A stretch of 11,068 nucleotides of DNA, from the NCBI GenBank assembly GCA_964618805.1, contig CAZUBM010000009.1, positions 73,374-84,441 on the forward strand, written 5' to 3'. Positions 1 through 9,092 of this stretch are shown piece after piece. This stretch comes from an uncultured Nitrososphaerota archaeon (GTDB lineage Archaea > Korarchaeota > Korarchaeia > Korarchaeales > Korarchaeaceae). Numbering within the stretch: the first letter of the stretch is position 1; each line of letters begins with the position of its first letter. Made by a program: the position numbers and the translations under genes. Under the pieces are notes generated by a model. The model was not told where the DNA came from, ran no database searches, and saw only the letters and a program-made list of their open reading frames with translations.

Positions 1-648
1 GTTGCAGGACTAATAGGGATGGAAGAGATCCTTAAAAGGCTAGACAGACACGATGAGGAGCTTGCTAAGTTAAGGGAAGATATGAATAAGGGATTTGAGA
101 GGCATGATAAGGAGCTTGCTAAGCTTAGGGAGGACATGAACAGGGGATTTGCAAGGTACGATGCTGAGCTTGCTAAGCTTAGGGAGGACATGAATAAGGG
201 ATTTGAGAGGCATGATAAGGAGCTTGCTAAGTTAAGGGAAGATATGAATAAGGGATTTGCCCTTATGGAAAGGCACATTTCTGCACTTGGCGCGAGATGG
301 GGATTAATAACAGAAGAAGCATTTAGAGAAGGGCTAAAGGGACTTCTTGAGAAGGAATTTGGCCTAATCGTTGAGAAATGGGAACATTTCGATCAGGAAG
401 GATTTGTTTATGGATATCCGAGTCAAGTTGAGGTAGACACGGCAATCAAAGATGGAAAAGTCATCCTGGTCGAGATTACTTCCCACGCAAGAGCTTCTGA
501 TATTTACACATTCAAGAGAAAGGCGGAATTCTACGAAAAGGTAACGGGTAAAAGTCCTTCTAGACTCCTCGTGATCACTCCATATGCAGAGGAAAAGGCA
601 AAGGAAGCTTCAAAGAGGATGAATGTTGAGATTTATACTGGTGTTTAA
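1..648 (+). CDS. DUF3782-like coiled-coil repeat protein with C-terminal PD-(D/E)XK nuclease-fold domain (probably 5'-partial)
   Basis: The frame is open from base 1 (VAGLIG precedes M at 19, resembling the family's 'AVAGLLG..EIL.RL' motif), so the true start is likely upstream of the window. It continues with 18-aa coiled-coil repeats, 'ALGARWGLITEEAFREG', 'D.EGFVYGYPSQVEVD', 'LVEITS' and 'RKAEFYEKVTG'. Confidence 0.85.
   Translation, partial: VAGLIGMEEILKRLDRHDEELAKLREDMNKGFERHDKELAKLREDMNRGFARYDAELAKLREDMNKGFERHDKELAKLREDMNKGFALMERHISALGARWGLITEEAFREGLKGLLEKEFGLIVEKWEHFDQEGFVYGYPSQVEVDTAIKDGKVILVEITSHARASDIYTFKRKAEFYEKVTGKSPSRLLVITPYAEEKAKEASKRMNVEIYTGV
46..261 (+). repeat. In-frame tandem repeat, 4 x 54 bp (RHDKELAKLREDMNKGFE-like)
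   Basis: Units at 46-99, 100-153, 154-207 and 208-261; the 42-bp blocks 82-123 and 190-231 are identical. Confidence 0.97.
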
Positions 649-761
649 TTTCTCCCTAGTTTACCTAAGAGCAGATCGTCAGTAAGTTGGTTTTTATTAT
701 GGCTAAGAATTAGAGACACGCTATTATTACAAGAAAAGCGCCTATTGAGATCTATCAGTTC

Positions 762-778
762 CCAAAATATTATTTTGG
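762..778. repeat. 8-1-8 inverted repeat overlapping the stop codon of the 770-1972 gene
   Basis: CCAAAATA-T-TATTTTGG read directly from the sequence. Confidence 0.8.
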
Positions 779-1972
779 AATAAATATGCATTCCCTTGGA
801 TATGCGTTCATCACATGGATTGGGCTCTTCTTAAGCTCATCTAAAGCGTCTCTTAACTCCTTCCTCTGCTCAAGAGGCCCAGAGGTCTTAGCATGCTCCA
901 AACCTCTAGGTATCTTTGCGATCTTACATAGCTCATAGCTTGCTACGGTTAAGGTAAAGCCCAGCAGAGCAGCAACGTGTGGGGAGATGGATATGCCCCC
1001 GGCATAGGAGAGAGCAGTAGCAACTGTTCCACTACCAAAACCAGCTACAGCTGCCCCTTTTGTCCCAGCTAAGGCAACTCCTGGAGAGGCTGCTCCTGCA
1101 GTAAAAACGGCTACAGCTACTGCTGTCGCAATCCCTCCAACTATTGCTATGTCCTTTTTGTGCCTTTTGCACCAATTCCATGTTGAAACAGCCTTTCTCT
1201 TCAACCAGCTTACTGCAGAGCCCGCCTTCCTCCTAAGCAGTGAGTAAGTGGAACCTAGCTTCGCCCTTAACCTCCTCGAAATATTAGGAAATTCCTTTCT
1301 TCTCCCATACCTATATCTTCCGTGAAGCCTTCTCCTTCCCACAGCCATCTTGCTCCTTGCTGAAAAGTAGGCCCTTCTAGCATATTCCTTCGCCTTACTT
1401 ACCTTTCCTTTAATCCAGTTATAGGAAGAGCTTACCTTTCTCCTAAGCAAACTCCATGCGGAGGTTAAGCGCTTCTTCGTGCCAAAGACCAGGTCCTTTC
1501 TGGCCTTATCTCCTGAGAAAACTGCTTTTACAGGAGGATCTGCCATAGTTGCTCCTGGACCGTATACTATTACCCTTTTCTGAGCTCCAGAAACCTTTTT
1601 CCCCTCAAGCCTTAGGCAAAGGATTTCGTAAACGCTTAGAAGGTTGTCCTCCCTTCCAAGCTCCTCTACCTCAAGCACCTTGAAGTTCTCATCCCCTATG
1701 AAAACCTGCCATAAAGAGGGATCTCTTCTCCTATCATATCCCAAAAGAATGGACTTTGGGCCCAAATTCCTAACATAAACTAGTGGTTCATCAGTCCCAA
1801 TTCCAGATGCTGCCACAACCTCTATGGAGGTCTGTCCTCCAACCAAATAGGCCCTTTCAACTGCTTTAGAGAACCAGCCCATCAAGGGACCTGAGAAAAG
1901 CAGGAGCGCAACTATGGAAAGAACGAGGATTATCATGCTTAGGGAAATTTTTGATATCCCTAACCTCTTCAT
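770..1972 (-). CDS. Hypothetical membrane/surface protein: class III (pilin-like) signal + pilin/Ig-like domain + cationic amphipathic repeats + Gly/Ala-rich hydrophobic region
   Basis: 400-aa ORF. N-terminus MKRLG|ISKISLSMIILVLSIVALLLF; beta-rich domain with 'VYVRNLG' and 'RVIVYGPG'; K/R-rich aa 166-273; hydrophobic Gly/Ala-rich aa 274-346; TATA-like box about 25 bp upstream. Confidence 0.75.
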   Translation of the reverse strand: MKRLGISKISLSMIILVLSIVALLLFSGPLMGWFSKAVERAYLVGGQTSIEVVAASGIGTDEPLVYVRNLGPKSILLGYDRRRDPSLWQVFIGDENFKVLEVEELGREDNLLSVYEILCLRLEGKKVSGAQKRVIVYGPGATMADPPVKAVFSGDKARKDLVFGTKKRLTSAWSLLRRKVSSSYNWIKGKVSKAKEYARRAYFSARSKMAVGRRRLHGRYRYGRRKEFPNISRRLRAKLGSTYSLLRRKAGSAVSWLKRKAVSTWNWCKRHKKDIAIVGGIATAVAVAVFTAGAASPGVALAGTKGAAVAGFGSGTVATALSYAGGISISPHVAALLGFTLTVASYELCKIAKIPRGLEHAKTSGPLEQRKELRDALDELKKSPIHVMNAYPRECIFIPK

Positions 1973-1990
1973 CGATTTTTTTATTTATTG

Positions 1991-2002
1991 TTTTAATAAA
2001 AA
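1991..2002 (-). promoter_or_regulatory. Putative TATA box for a leaderless or short-leader transcript of 770-1972
   Basis: Minus-strand TTTTTATTAAAA lies 19-30 nt upstream of the ATG at 1972; no RBS is visible. Confidence 0.45.
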
Positions 2003-2234
2003 GTTGTCTCGGTAAAAATAATTGATCCCATCCTACGGAAAGGCCAACAATGATTGTATGACATTTTATGCAGTTAGCCCATAGCATTAACTGGTGATTG
2101 AGAGCGACCCATTTATGCTAATTTCTAATGCGATCAGTTAAAGATCAATGATCACATTTCTGGGAAGCCTTCTTGAGCTAAATGTGTCGAGAATAAAAGA
2201 GAATGAAAAATGGATATAAATAATGGGAAAGGCC

Positions 2235-2244
2235 AAAAAAGAAA
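2235..2244 (-). terminator. Putative archaeal oligo-U terminator of the Zn-ribbon gene
   Basis: Minus-strand TTTCTTTTTT about 10 nt after the stop at 2254. Confidence 0.4.
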
Positions 2245-2253
2245 TGTGCCCCC

Positions 2254-2469
2254 TTATATGGCGATGTAGGCCTTGCATCGGGGGCAGTGTATGTGTTCAG
2301 AAGAATTTTCTGAATCATAGCCACTTATGTTTATTTTCTCCATGTCTATAATCAGATGACACTTTGGGCATTGTATAATCCTCTCATTAGAGTCTAGCGG
2401 ATGTATTGCAAGCAAGAGACCCAGCACTGCGAGGATTGAGGTACCCAGTGCCAAGGTAATTGCGCTCAT
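2254..2469 (-). CDS. Small membrane-anchored zinc-ribbon protein
   Basis: 71 aa; N-terminal hydrophobic helix (ITLALGTSILAVLGLLLAI) and two CxxC knuckles (CPKC, CPRC); T-tract downstream. Confidence 0.7.
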   Translation of the reverse strand: MSAITLALGTSILAVLGLLLAIHPLDSNERIIQCPKCHLIIDMEKINISGYDSENSSEHIHCPRCKAYIAI

Positions 2470-7910: not shown

Positions 7911-9092
7911 ATGAAAAAGAGGTCAGCTTCAGCCCTTCTATCAGCCCTAGTCATCGTTTCCTTCGTCTCAACAATCCATATCTCTGCTTGGTGGGAGGAA
8001 GGACATCAGTTAATGACAATGGAGGCAGTAGAGGTGATCTCACAGGCCCTTCCTGAGTGGGAGGAGTTCTTCCATCATTACGCTTACTTCATAAACGACA
8101 CCGTTACCTGGCCAGACATGGTTTTCAAGGCTTCTGATCCAAAGGAGGAGCCAAGGCACTACTACGATCTTGAGATCCCACCAGAAAAAAGGACTTACGA
8201 GGATGGAGTCCTTCCCTATGCTATTGAAAACTACACTCTGCTTATGGCTGAGGCACTTAAGAAGGGAGATTGGTATGAGGCCCTTGTAAACGCTGGAAGG
8301 GTAACCCACTACATACAGGACGCCCATCAGCCTTATCACTGCACCGTTAACTATAATCCCCTTGGAAAGCACGCGCTTGCAGATTCTTTGGTTGAGAAGC
8401 ACTGGAAAGAGCTTAGAATAGAGGTCTCTCCAGAGCTTCATGTGATTGAAAACCTGACGGATTACGCCATGCAAATAATTATAGACAGCAATGCAAAGGT
8501 TGCAAGGCTAAACGCGACCCTGATAGGTGATCCAGAGGATCCAAACGATGACAAGGAGTGGAGCGATGACCTTAGGGATCTTATAAGCGAGCAAGCGAGC
8601 AGGGCAATAAAGGCCACTGCTGAGCTTTGGTACACAGCCATAGTTATGGCAGGGGTTGAGCCTCCAAGCCTTGAGGGAGTTGATTTCATAAAGGTCGATT
8701 TAGTCGCTCCAAAAGAGGCTAGAACGAGGCTAACAGCAGATGTAAACCTTGAGGATGGGCTAGGAATCCCTGTAGATGCAAAAGTCACTTGGACCCTTGG
8801 GACAGATAGTGGAGAAGCTAGCAAGAGGCCATATCTCACTGGAAACTACCGAATAATAATTACGGGCGACGTTCTATCTAAGTACGCAGGTCAGGAGGTA
8901 ACCCTCTCCGTAAAGACTGAAAGGCCAGGATACACGACTGGAGAGGCATCAGTAACTGTTAAGATAGGAGGAGCTCCGACTCCAACTCCTGGACCTTCAG
9001 CAAAGGGGATGCCTTGGCTGCTGATAACAATCCTAGCCATAATCGTTGTCGTGATATTGATACTCGTACTATGGCTTAGGAGAAGGGGTTAA
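7911..9092 (+). CDS. Secreted, C-terminally membrane-anchored S1/P1 nuclease / Zn-dependent phospholipase C-fold enzyme
   Basis: Sec signal ending ISA|W; putative tri-zinc ligands W27, H32, D69, H83, H133, D137, H143, H154, D158; beta-rich C-terminal domain, PTPTPGP linker, TM helix and RRRG tail. Confidence 0.85.
   Translation: MKKRSASALLSALVIVSFVSTIHISAWWEEGHQLMTMEAVEVISQALPEWEEFFHHYAYFINDTVTWPDMVFKASDPKEEPRHYYDLEIPPEKRTYEDGVLPYAIENYTLLMAEALKKGDWYEALVNAGRVTHYIQDAHQPYHCTVNYNPLGKHALADSLVEKHWKELRIEVSPELHVIENLTDYAMQIIIDSNAKVARLNATLIGDPEDPNDDKEWSDDLRDLISEQASRAIKATAELWYTAIVMAGVEPPSLEGVDFIKVDLVAPKEARTRLTADVNLEDGLGIPVDAKVTWTLGTDSGEASKRPYLTGNYRIIITGDVLSKYAGQEVTLSVKTERPGYTTGEASVTVKIGGAPTPTPGPSAKGMPWLLITILAIIVVVILILVLWLRRRG

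Follow-up and report, generated by a model that had tools for sequence, protein, structure and literature searches.

Archaeal type IV pilins and archaellins, exemplified by the pili of Saccharolobus (6w8x/6nav) and Pyrobaculum (8fk7) and by the archaellins 7ofq and 9eq7, are built from a basic leader ending in glycine, a long hydrophobic helix and an immunoglobulin (Ig)-like beta-sandwich head, after which the protein stops. Here we have analysed a stretch of 11,068 nucleotides, referred to as the window, from an uncultured archaeon placed in the Korarchaeota (GenBank assembly GCA_964618805.1, contig CAZUBM010000009.1, positions 73,374 to 84,441 of the forward strand). The open reading frame (ORF) 770..1972 on the minus strand of the window encodes a protein of 400 amino acids (aa), named P0001, which shares these three elements with the archaeal pilins and archaellins but runs 250 residues further; the complete members of the family to which it belongs run on for 400 residues or more. 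We show that P0001 is a modular archaeal type IV pilin-like protein, in which the leader, the first helix (alpha-1) and the beta-sandwich head are followed by a basic linker and a Gly/Ala-rich region, the latter two being defined as sequence features. Relative to a syntenic locus in a sister genome, the window copy lacks a C-terminal domain, a partner gene and a small membrane ORF.

Type IV pilins that carry an additional module have been described in bacteria. In PilB and PilC of Streptococcus sanguinis, and in CofB and TcpB, a functional module is grafted onto an N-terminal pilin module, and these proteins are thought to be located at the tip of the filament (Raynaud et al. 2021, PMC8179133). 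The modular pilins described there are bacterial, and the word "archaea" does not occur in that paper. P0001 has the same arrangement, with the pilin module at the N-terminus and the extra module behind it. However, whereas the bacterial proteins carry soluble domains, such as vWA or lectin domains, the graft in P0001 consists of basic helices and a hydrophobic Gly/Ala block, and the complete members add to this a domain without a family match and a dedicated partner gene. The family would extend the modular pilins to archaea, with a membrane-engaging block, a domain for which no fold family was matched, and a partner gene.

The second group of systems to be considered is that of the polymorphic toxins and contact-dependent inhibition systems which, like the complete relatives of P0001, combine an N-terminal trafficking part with a basic C-terminal domain and a small acidic downstream gene. 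Orphan partners, truncated or frameshifted copies and mosaic identity are further features that the polymorphic toxins have in common with this family. They differ from it in that the family has no known toxin or immunity domain and a single family of C-terminal domains, and in that the window copy has neither a toxin-like domain nor a partner. According to the survey by Zhang et al. (2012, PMC3482391), polymorphic toxin systems are rare in archaea; the 300,000 characters of its text that were searched contain no pilin trafficking mode and 0 occurrences of "pilin" or "pilus". As of 2021, antagonism and self/non-self recognition in archaea were largely predicted, seldom tested and uncharacterised (PMC8416519), and an archaeal type VI-like system was reported only in 2024 (PMC11566945).

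A pilin module extended by a basic linker and a Gly/Ala-rich region

The layout of 770..1972 had been proposed in a first-pass annotation made from the sequence alone. The ORF, the order of its modules and the strings quoted at that time were all recovered: MKRLGISKI is found at aa 1-9, VYVRNLG at aa 65-71 and WNWCKRHKKDIAIVGGIATAVAVAVFTAGAASPG at aa 265-298. Hydropathy averaged over 19 residues has its maxima at aa 6-29 (2.4) and aa 276-294 (2.0), with strong hydrophobicity across aa 6-34 and moderately hydrophobic stretches as far as about aa 350.

The N-terminal 145 aa of P0001 are an archaeal pilin module, as is evident from the fold, the homology to pilins of type IV pilus (T4P) loci and the conservation of the leader, and the earlier proposal that the N-terminal third is pilin-like is borne out on all three grounds. 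In the case of the fold, an AlphaFold2 (AF2) model based on a 36-row alignment contains a helix at aa 6-45 and eight strands within aa 49-144. The predicted local distance difference test (pLDDT) values exceed 90 over the sandwich (aa 51-140), and are about 92-95 at aa 11-30 and 73-79 at aa 31-50. A Foldseek comparison of this model with the Protein Data Bank (PDB) gave 12 matches at E <= 0.001, the best 11 of which (E 1.4e-4 to 8.5e-4) are all archaellins (7ofq, 9eq7, 7txi), archaeal type IV pili (6w8x, 8fk7, 6nav, 8q30) or FlaG. The head superposes best on the soluble domains of FlaG/FlaF, with a root-mean-square deviation (rmsd) of 3.3-4.3 A (3.3 A over 110 columns) and a TM-score, normalised by target, of 0.55-0.60; for the filament subunits, in which the helix is oriented differently, the rmsd is above 10 A.

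As for homology, the first 145 aa of P0001 match five other places in the same genome, three of which are located on one contig (G000:C7). The head-domain homologues on this contig sit between a gene for a Peptidase_A24/Arc_PepC_II protein and the genes for a T2SSE ATPase and a T2SSF (TadC-like) protein, machinery that is absent from the window. Genome-wide, two A24 and three T2SSE matches exceed the family cut-offs, so that the T4P ATPase and the prepilin peptidase which the annotation had suggested looking for are both encoded (one A24 peptidase gene is at L054:2241-2966). The head of P0001 is 29-56% identical to standalone pilins of about 150 aa, one subfamily of which reaches 54-56%. These standalone relatives terminate at ...VYGPGGTQTEYLYRGG or ...VYGPGATVAEYLLNKP, immediately past the head domain, in agreement with the general statement, made in the annotation, that archaeal pilins normally end after the globular domain. 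It should be noted that the pilin models of Pfam and NCBIfam gave no score on P0001 or on its relatives, the standalone pilins included.

The N-terminus, MKRLG followed by ISKISLSMIILVLSIVALLLFSG, fits a class III signal, in which a short basic leader ending in Gly or Ala precedes a hydrophobic stretch of about 20 residues. The strict pattern [KR]..G/[IVLA]S (the slash marking the cleavage site) plus a hydrophobic run is present in 24 of the 34 family rows. The Lys at position +3, which had been flagged as atypical, is not so in this lineage, the residue at this position being basic in 22 of the 24 rows that match the leader pattern (Arg in 20 and Lys in 2, the other two rows having Gln and Asn).

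The pilin cluster on G000:C7 has some peculiarities of its own. One T2SSE-type pilus ATPase (L054:9003-11744, G000:C7:75002-77746; 914 aa) is split by a LAGLIDADG intein, matching the Pfam families Intein_splicing and LAGLIDADG_3. An 88-aa ORF at 73846-74112 of the same contig, situated between near-identical pilin genes at 73163 and 74218, has a product very similar to the N-terminal part of the ATPase encoded from 75002 onwards. Read from the translations, this suggests that a segment comprising a pilin gene and the 5' end of the ATPase gene may have been duplicated.

The Trp-containing linker that follows the head of P0001 (aa 148-273) contains 19 Lys and 21 Arg among its 126 residues (32%), giving a net charge of +36; in all five full-length members of the family the charge of this part lies between +19 and +36. 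AF2 places helices at aa 159-221 and aa 231-270, with pLDDT values of 50-88. The linker holds an internal duplication of about 70 aa, which yields two SxxSLLRRK...W[IL]K[GR]K units and is also visible in the DNA as a repeat, D1, of 48 nt (1192-1239 and 1402-1449, 71% identity, spacing 210 nt). The hydrophobic region behind it (aa 274-353, 80 aa) is 40% Gly+Ala, with a net charge of +1. Eight of its residues are invariant in the family (T291, G293, G298, A300, S322, G325, S328 and G338), and AF2 predicts helices at aa 272-293, 318-323 and 331-351, though its confidence is low at aa 292-330. The protein ends in a mixed-charge tail of 47 aa with a net charge of +2.

None of the 250 aa beyond the pilin module has a significant match in Pfam, NCBIfam, PADLOC or PHROGs, which upholds the earlier remark that the architecture is not that of a described family. 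A search for stand-alone or split homologues of aa 150-360 among proteins of 30-219 aa (932 candidates) found none, and in the ESM Atlas aa 150-400 scored 0.80-0.81, which is the chance level. One candidate from an unrelated metagenome contig, L043, a 126-aa protein with AWCKRHKK and a membrane helix, was rejected as a homologue because, by our own estimate, a collection this large should contain a match to a 7-residue pattern by chance alone. Its ORF (L043:6064-6444) encodes the stretch ...STKAWCKRHKKAILIVGG..., which is similar to the family's junction of linker and membrane segment; the ORF lies among small phage- or plasmid-like ORFs of an unrelated organism, and the likeness is probably due to chance or convergence.

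The first-pass annotation had compared the Gly/Ala segment with the pre-toxin segments of bacterial polymorphic toxins and with glycine-zipper pore formers. This comparison found no backing in any sequence or fold search, which returned sub-threshold matches to tape-measure proteins only. Phage tape-measure proteins, like the middle part of the family, have long helical stretches rich in Lys, Ser and Trp followed by Gly/Ala-rich hydrophobic segments. The weak PHROGs matches, of a kind that composition alone could give, are of P0002 (aa 160-264, 105 aa) to phrog_58 (E 1.7e-4), of P0006 to phrog_167 (E 0.007) and of P0004 to phrog_12798 (E 0.096), and the family profile, A1, matched an N4 gp53-like chain among the PDB profiles at E 0.06. 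P0001 itself has no tape-measure hit in PHROGs, and a Pfam scan found no phage genes in the window. We take the tape-measure likeness as a lead on how the middle part may behave, and not as a sign of membership.

Recurrence of the fusion and truncation of the window copy

A word-seeded HMMER search covering 5.8 billion clusters, in which 8000 candidate proteins of 220-700 aa were scored, retrieved five proteins at E <= 0.001, namely the query P0001, its same-genome paralogue P0002 (G000:C3, 565 aa), P0004, P0005 and P0006, the last of which is named in one source as Candidatus Korarchaeota archaeon. A scan of metagenomes added one further member, L042; a scan of genome contigs gave no confirmed relative. 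The order of the modules is common to all six. The five proteins share as invariant features VYVRNLGP, VYGPGAT.ADPP.K, WCK.HKK and small residues in the hydrophobic block. When 40 genomes of the class were searched with the profile, 16 had some match, and in three of them (G000, G003 and G004), all of the genus g1, the match extended beyond the pilin head. Judged from these searches, the family is extremely rare and very small, occurs in Korarchaeota-like assemblies only, and matches no described family. It is undescribed in the literature that was searched, but related architectures may have been described earlier by Makarova et al. 2019 (mBio), in their work on archaeal polymorphic toxins.

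With these data we have also considered whether the fusion is an assembly chimera or a frame artefact, in which unrelated sequence was attached to a pilin gene at about aa 150. In its favour, the genome is a metagenome-type assembly of 62 contigs, and standalone pilins 54-56% identical to the head do exist. However, the junction VYGPGAT.ADPP.K and the basic linker are also present in P0002, P0004, P0005, P0006 and L042, which come from different sources, and a Logan contig of 3431 nt from run X1, produced by a different assembler from what is likely the source sample, spans window positions 300-2400 with 0 differences. We therefore reject an artefact, which we consider extremely improbable: the fusion recurs in independent assemblies and the Logan contig agrees with the window.

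The truncation is seen by comparison with a sister contig (G004:C233), which begins inside the orthologue of the window gene. The first 55 aa of its product, P0011, align with aa 337-390 of P0001 (55% identity, E 5e-15, BLASTP), and are followed by a C-terminal domain of about 240 aa, a 182-aa gene (L053:889-1434) resembling that of P0003, the acidic partner of P0002, an 82-aa membrane ORF, and a DUF3782/PDDEXK_10 gene. The counterpart of this last gene in the window, ORF 19-648, is 88% identical to that of the sister locus (L053:1804-2340) over 154 aa. Two blastn anchors tie the loci together: window 937-826 aligns with L053 29-140 (70.5%), and window 651-549 with L053 1798-1900 (94%). Between the anchors the sister locus has 1657 nt and the window 174 nt, which leaves the window with a gap of about 1.48 kb. 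Searching the window at this gap by tblastn for the three missing ORFs (C-terminal domain, partner and 82-aa ORF) revealed no remnant at E below 0.1. The window gene is followed by 122 nt of non-coding DNA and then directly by the convergent gene, with neither a partner gene nor a C-terminal domain. Because every other member keeps the C-terminal domain, we infer that about 1.48 kb was deleted in the lineage of the window. The window gene, at 55% identity to the sister locus versus 88% for the flanking gene, evolves much faster than its neighbour.

Given this loss, the window copy might, whatever the function of the family, be a non-functional remnant, that is to say a pseudogene in the making whose frame is open by chance. 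Three things speak for it: the C-terminal domain is gone, together with the 82-aa ORF and the partner, the protein ends in approximately 15 residues of unrelated sequence, and other copies of the family are visibly decaying. Against it, the frame of 400 codons is intact and every family-invariant residue has been kept, an AT-rich promoter-like stretch lies right before the ATG, and the linker has been remodelled by its internal duplication with the frame left unbroken. On balance, we find this explanation rather doubtful. In either case, 770..1972 should be annotated as a C-terminally truncated pilin-fusion protein, and not as a complete effector.

Complete relatives, their partner gene and possible functions

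The complete members of the family are 555-621 aa long. In these proteins the hydrophobic block is joined by a spacer rich in Pro to a basic alpha/beta domain (150-250 aa, net charge +7 to +34), which in P0002 covers about aa 430-565. The idea that the Gly/Ala segment is the business end of the protein does not hold in view of this further domain and of the partner gene. An exhaustive HMMER profile search with the C-terminal domain among 1.84 billion representatives gave 13 hits, all of them alignable members or fragments of one family. The domains contain a conserved D-x(9-10)-E-x-[EK] ... H-I-[IL] motif, located at a beta-hairpin followed by a helix. In the AF2 model of P0002 (pLDDT 62), D481 and E490/E492 are placed on adjacent strands with the helix coming next, an arrangement compatible with a PD-(D/E)xK-like site, as far as the model goes; nucleases of that kind have an alpha-beta-beta-beta-alpha-beta core in which D ... 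(D/E)xK occupies strands two and three. For another protein, P0013, aa 115-314 scored 0.90-0.92 in the ESM Atlas to unnamed clusters and DUF1122; this lead was dropped because PF06557 matched 0 of 43 genomes of the phylum, carriers of the family included.

An acidic, signal-less partner gene of about 185 aa is conserved a short distance 3' of the complete members. It is found directly downstream in G000:C3, G004:C233 and G004:C139; in the case of P0002, 39 nt separate it from the acidic 185-aa ORF encoding P0003. The net charge of the partners (-6 to -20) is opposite to that of the basic C-terminal domains. A search for the partner family gave four hits among 27 candidates, and partner-like sequences were located at 10 places in four of the five genomes of the genus, five of them in G004 alone, several being orphans beside housekeeping genes. 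Near the end of contig G000:C4 (L051:1237-2171), a 79-aa pilin stump that stops soon after a degenerate VYVRKLG is directly followed by a 207-aa partner-like gene with a 22-aa insertion, which is again an orphan-partner arrangement. Frameshifted copies of the family are present in G003:C127 and G004:C139. Along the protein, the identity between P0001 and P0004 falls from 81% in the head to 33% in the linker, 40% in the membrane region and 28% in the tail, and the membrane region of P0001 is nearer to that of P0002 (49%) than to that of P0004 (40%), the reverse of what is seen for the pilin head. This mosaic pattern hints at recombination. When the three cognate pairs were compared, the identity of the partners and that of the C-terminal domains both peaked in one pair, while the order of the other two was mismatched (n = 3), which is only a hint that the two may diverge together. 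Prediction of a complex between the C-terminal domain of P0002 and P0003 gave a score of 0.01 against a mark of 0.32, and is evidence neither way.

We consider it possible, and put it forward tentatively, that the complete family is a pilin-borne effector/immunity-like cassette and that the window gene is an effector-less remnant of it. What speaks for such a cassette is the partner gene lying directly downstream, the orphan partners, the pilin stump and the frameshifted copies, the opposite charges of domain and partner, the conserved motif, the fast evolution of the protein beside a conserved flank, and the mosaic identity. In the complete form, the pilin module would route the protein via the prepilin peptidase and the T4P to the cell surface or the pilus tip, the basic helices and the hydrophobic segment may help it to engage or cross the envelope of a neighbour, and the basic C-terminal domain would serve as the effector, with nucleic acid as a possible target. 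In the producer, this effector would be neutralised by the acidic partner, so that the whole would be a contact-dependent toxin/immunity-like cassette. If the family is such an effector system, the window copy, without the C-terminal domain and the partner, is a disarmed remnant; its product would at most still be displayed and membrane-engaging, and it may be en route to decay. Should the toxin/immunity view be verified, it would provide a new delivery route and two new protein families. Even if it is false, the family clearly shows that an uncultured lineage has put a pilin to new use, as a handle for export or display.

In a bolder version, a genus of Korarchaeota would deliver a contact-dependent effector by means of a type IV pilin, whose tape-measure-like helices and Gly/Ala segment would breach the membrane of a neighbour and release a new nuclease-like domain into this target, the producer being protected by the acidic protein. 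This full sequence of events strikes us as fairly unlikely. If true, it would be a pilus-borne toxin delivery undescribed in either prokaryotic domain, and the orphan immunity genes and disarmed copies would be traces of an arms race.

Several observations weigh against an effector/immunity cassette. No toxin, immunity, defence or pore-former family was matched by any member in the Pfam, NCBIfam, PADLOC and PHROGs scans. Every C-terminal domain retrieved belongs to a single homologous family, and no repertoire of unrelated toxin folds, such as classical polymorphic toxins have, was seen. The polymorphism that the first-pass annotation had suggested looking for is present in part, as paralogues and orthologues share the pilin half and differ downstream. 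The canonical ExK is found in P0004 only, the others having ExE. The AF2 model of the C-terminal part of P0002 is of moderate quality (pLDDT 62), and Foldseek gave no match to it at E <= 0.001. With VIA-align against 48,161 chains the best Z was 7.2, which by the tool's own note is in the background range, and the matches were a mixture in which GNAT, methyltransferase and Nudix folds occur beside a few nucleases; the nuclease folds do not stand out from the others (2zyz, Z 5.7; 1y88, Z 5.3; 2vld, Z 5.1), and Foldseek placed Hjc at E 0.5. Among the PDB sequence profiles nothing scored below E 0.05, the best values (0.06 for the family, 0.052 for the C-terminal domain, to the RAP30 winged helix, and 0.36 for the partner) being noise. 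Conservation of the partner equals or exceeds that of the putative toxin domain. The topology would also be awkward: with its charge of +36, the linker should by the positive-inside rule not lie outside the cell, and the three hydrophobic segments would impede the extraction of a subunit into a filament. Finally, the window copy is without the very domain on which a toxin function rests.

Some of these observations would suit a modular pilin that is not antagonistic. Such a protein would display the basic helices, and in the complete members also the C-terminal domain, at the tip for adhesion, for binding of extracellular DNA or the S-layer, or for DNA uptake, and the partner, acting as a chaperone in the cytoplasm, would hold the basic cargo in solution until it is exported. 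Linkers with a charge of +19 to +36 in all five members are suited to binding polyanions, and no toxin family was matched. However, orphan partner copies, a pilin stump with a partner and frameshifted copies would be unusual for adhesins or DNA receptors, and adhesion does not need a hydrophobic block of 80 aa with invariant small residues. We regard a non-antagonistic role of this kind as unlikely.

The similarity of the head to FlaF and FlaG, which are pilin-like, S-layer-binding proteins outside the membrane, raises another alternative. P0001 and its relatives could be resident membrane proteins instead of filament subunits, anchored by the N-terminal helix, with a FlaF/FlaG-like sandwich outside and Gly/Ala helices re-entering the membrane, and with the C-terminal domain and the partner engaged in the cytoplasm in signalling, regulation or the base of the pilus. 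Not only do the soluble domains of FlaG/FlaF superpose best; an odd number of hydrophobic segments follows the outside domain, and the C-terminus would therefore be cytoplasmic, alongside the signal-less partner. On the other hand, the nearest relatives of the head are putative major pilins and the standalone pilin subfamily (54-56%) rather than genes of the FlaF/FlaG type, the linker with its charge of +36 would again be on the outside of the membrane, and the patchy, decaying, multi-copy distribution is unlike that of a structural part of a machine. This alternative is, in our opinion, distinctly unlikely, and the effector/immunity-like cassette, tentative as it is, remains the reading that we prefer.

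Feature coordinates and neighbouring genes

The features of the window gene and its immediate surroundings are collected in the table below. A sigma-70 promoter scan was disregarded in assigning the upstream region, as it is not applicable to archaea.

Table. Features of the window gene and its downstream flank (positions in the window)
Feature	Positions	Strand	Basis or remark
AT-rich stretch upstream, TTTTATTAAAACAATAAATAAAAAAATCG immediately before the ATG	1973..2010	-	possible TATA-box region, leaderless transcript; putative promoter
Class III-type leader MKRLG, aa 1-5, predicted cleavage after G5	1958..1972	-	leader pattern in 24/34 family rows
Long hydrophobic alpha-helix, aa 6-45 (pilin alpha-1)	1838..1957	-	AF2 and hydropathy peak 2.4
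Beta-sandwich pilin head, aa 46-147, with family motifs VYVRNLGP and VYGPGAT.ADPP	1532..1837	-	AF2, Foldseek, homology
Basic helical linker, aa 148-273, net charge +36, ending in invariant WCKRHKK	1154..1531	-	composition and AF2 helices
Gly/Ala-rich hydrophobic region, aa 274-352, about three hydrophobic segments	917..1153	-	family alignment, hydropathy, composition, AF2
Post-membrane tail, aa 353 to ~383 (..KTSGPLEQRKELRDALDELKKSP), homologous to complete relatives	826..916	-	BLASTP, blastn
Unique C-terminal end (..IHVMNAYPRECIFIPK and stop), no counterpart in relatives; frame departs from homologous sequence	770..825	-	alignments to relatives
Putative deletion scar, 174 nt vs 1657 nt in the sister genome	652..825	.	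blastn anchors
Convergent flanking gene with DUF3782 and PDDEXK_10, synteny anchor, outside the system	19..648	+	Pfam

The flanking gene contains, at 50-260 on the plus strand, a 54-nt tandem repeat of 3.9 copies (82% match) that encodes HDKELAKLREDMNKGFER units; its sister orthologue is 179 aa long versus 209 aa in the window and apparently has fewer repeat units. Upstream of P0002 on G000:C3, Rfam identifies a tRNA gene of 124 nt (L014:314-437), probably intron-containing, that was missed by ARAGORN. This gene is followed by an archaeal histone-like ORF of 76 aa, about 730 nt of AT-rich non-coding DNA, and then P0002, and the region may be an insertion hot spot.

Two other genes of the window deserve mention. 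The first, at 2254-2469 on the minus strand, lies 280 nt upstream of 770..1972 on the same strand, and encodes a 71-aa protein that starts with a membrane helix and has two CxxC pairs resembling a zinc ribbon (weak Pfam hits only). The second, at 7911-9092 on the plus strand, encodes a 393-aa protein with a signal-like N-terminus and weak matches, below the curated cut-offs, to S1/P1-nuclease and Zn-phospholipase C; a stretch rich in Pro and Thr and a membrane anchor make up its C-terminal end.

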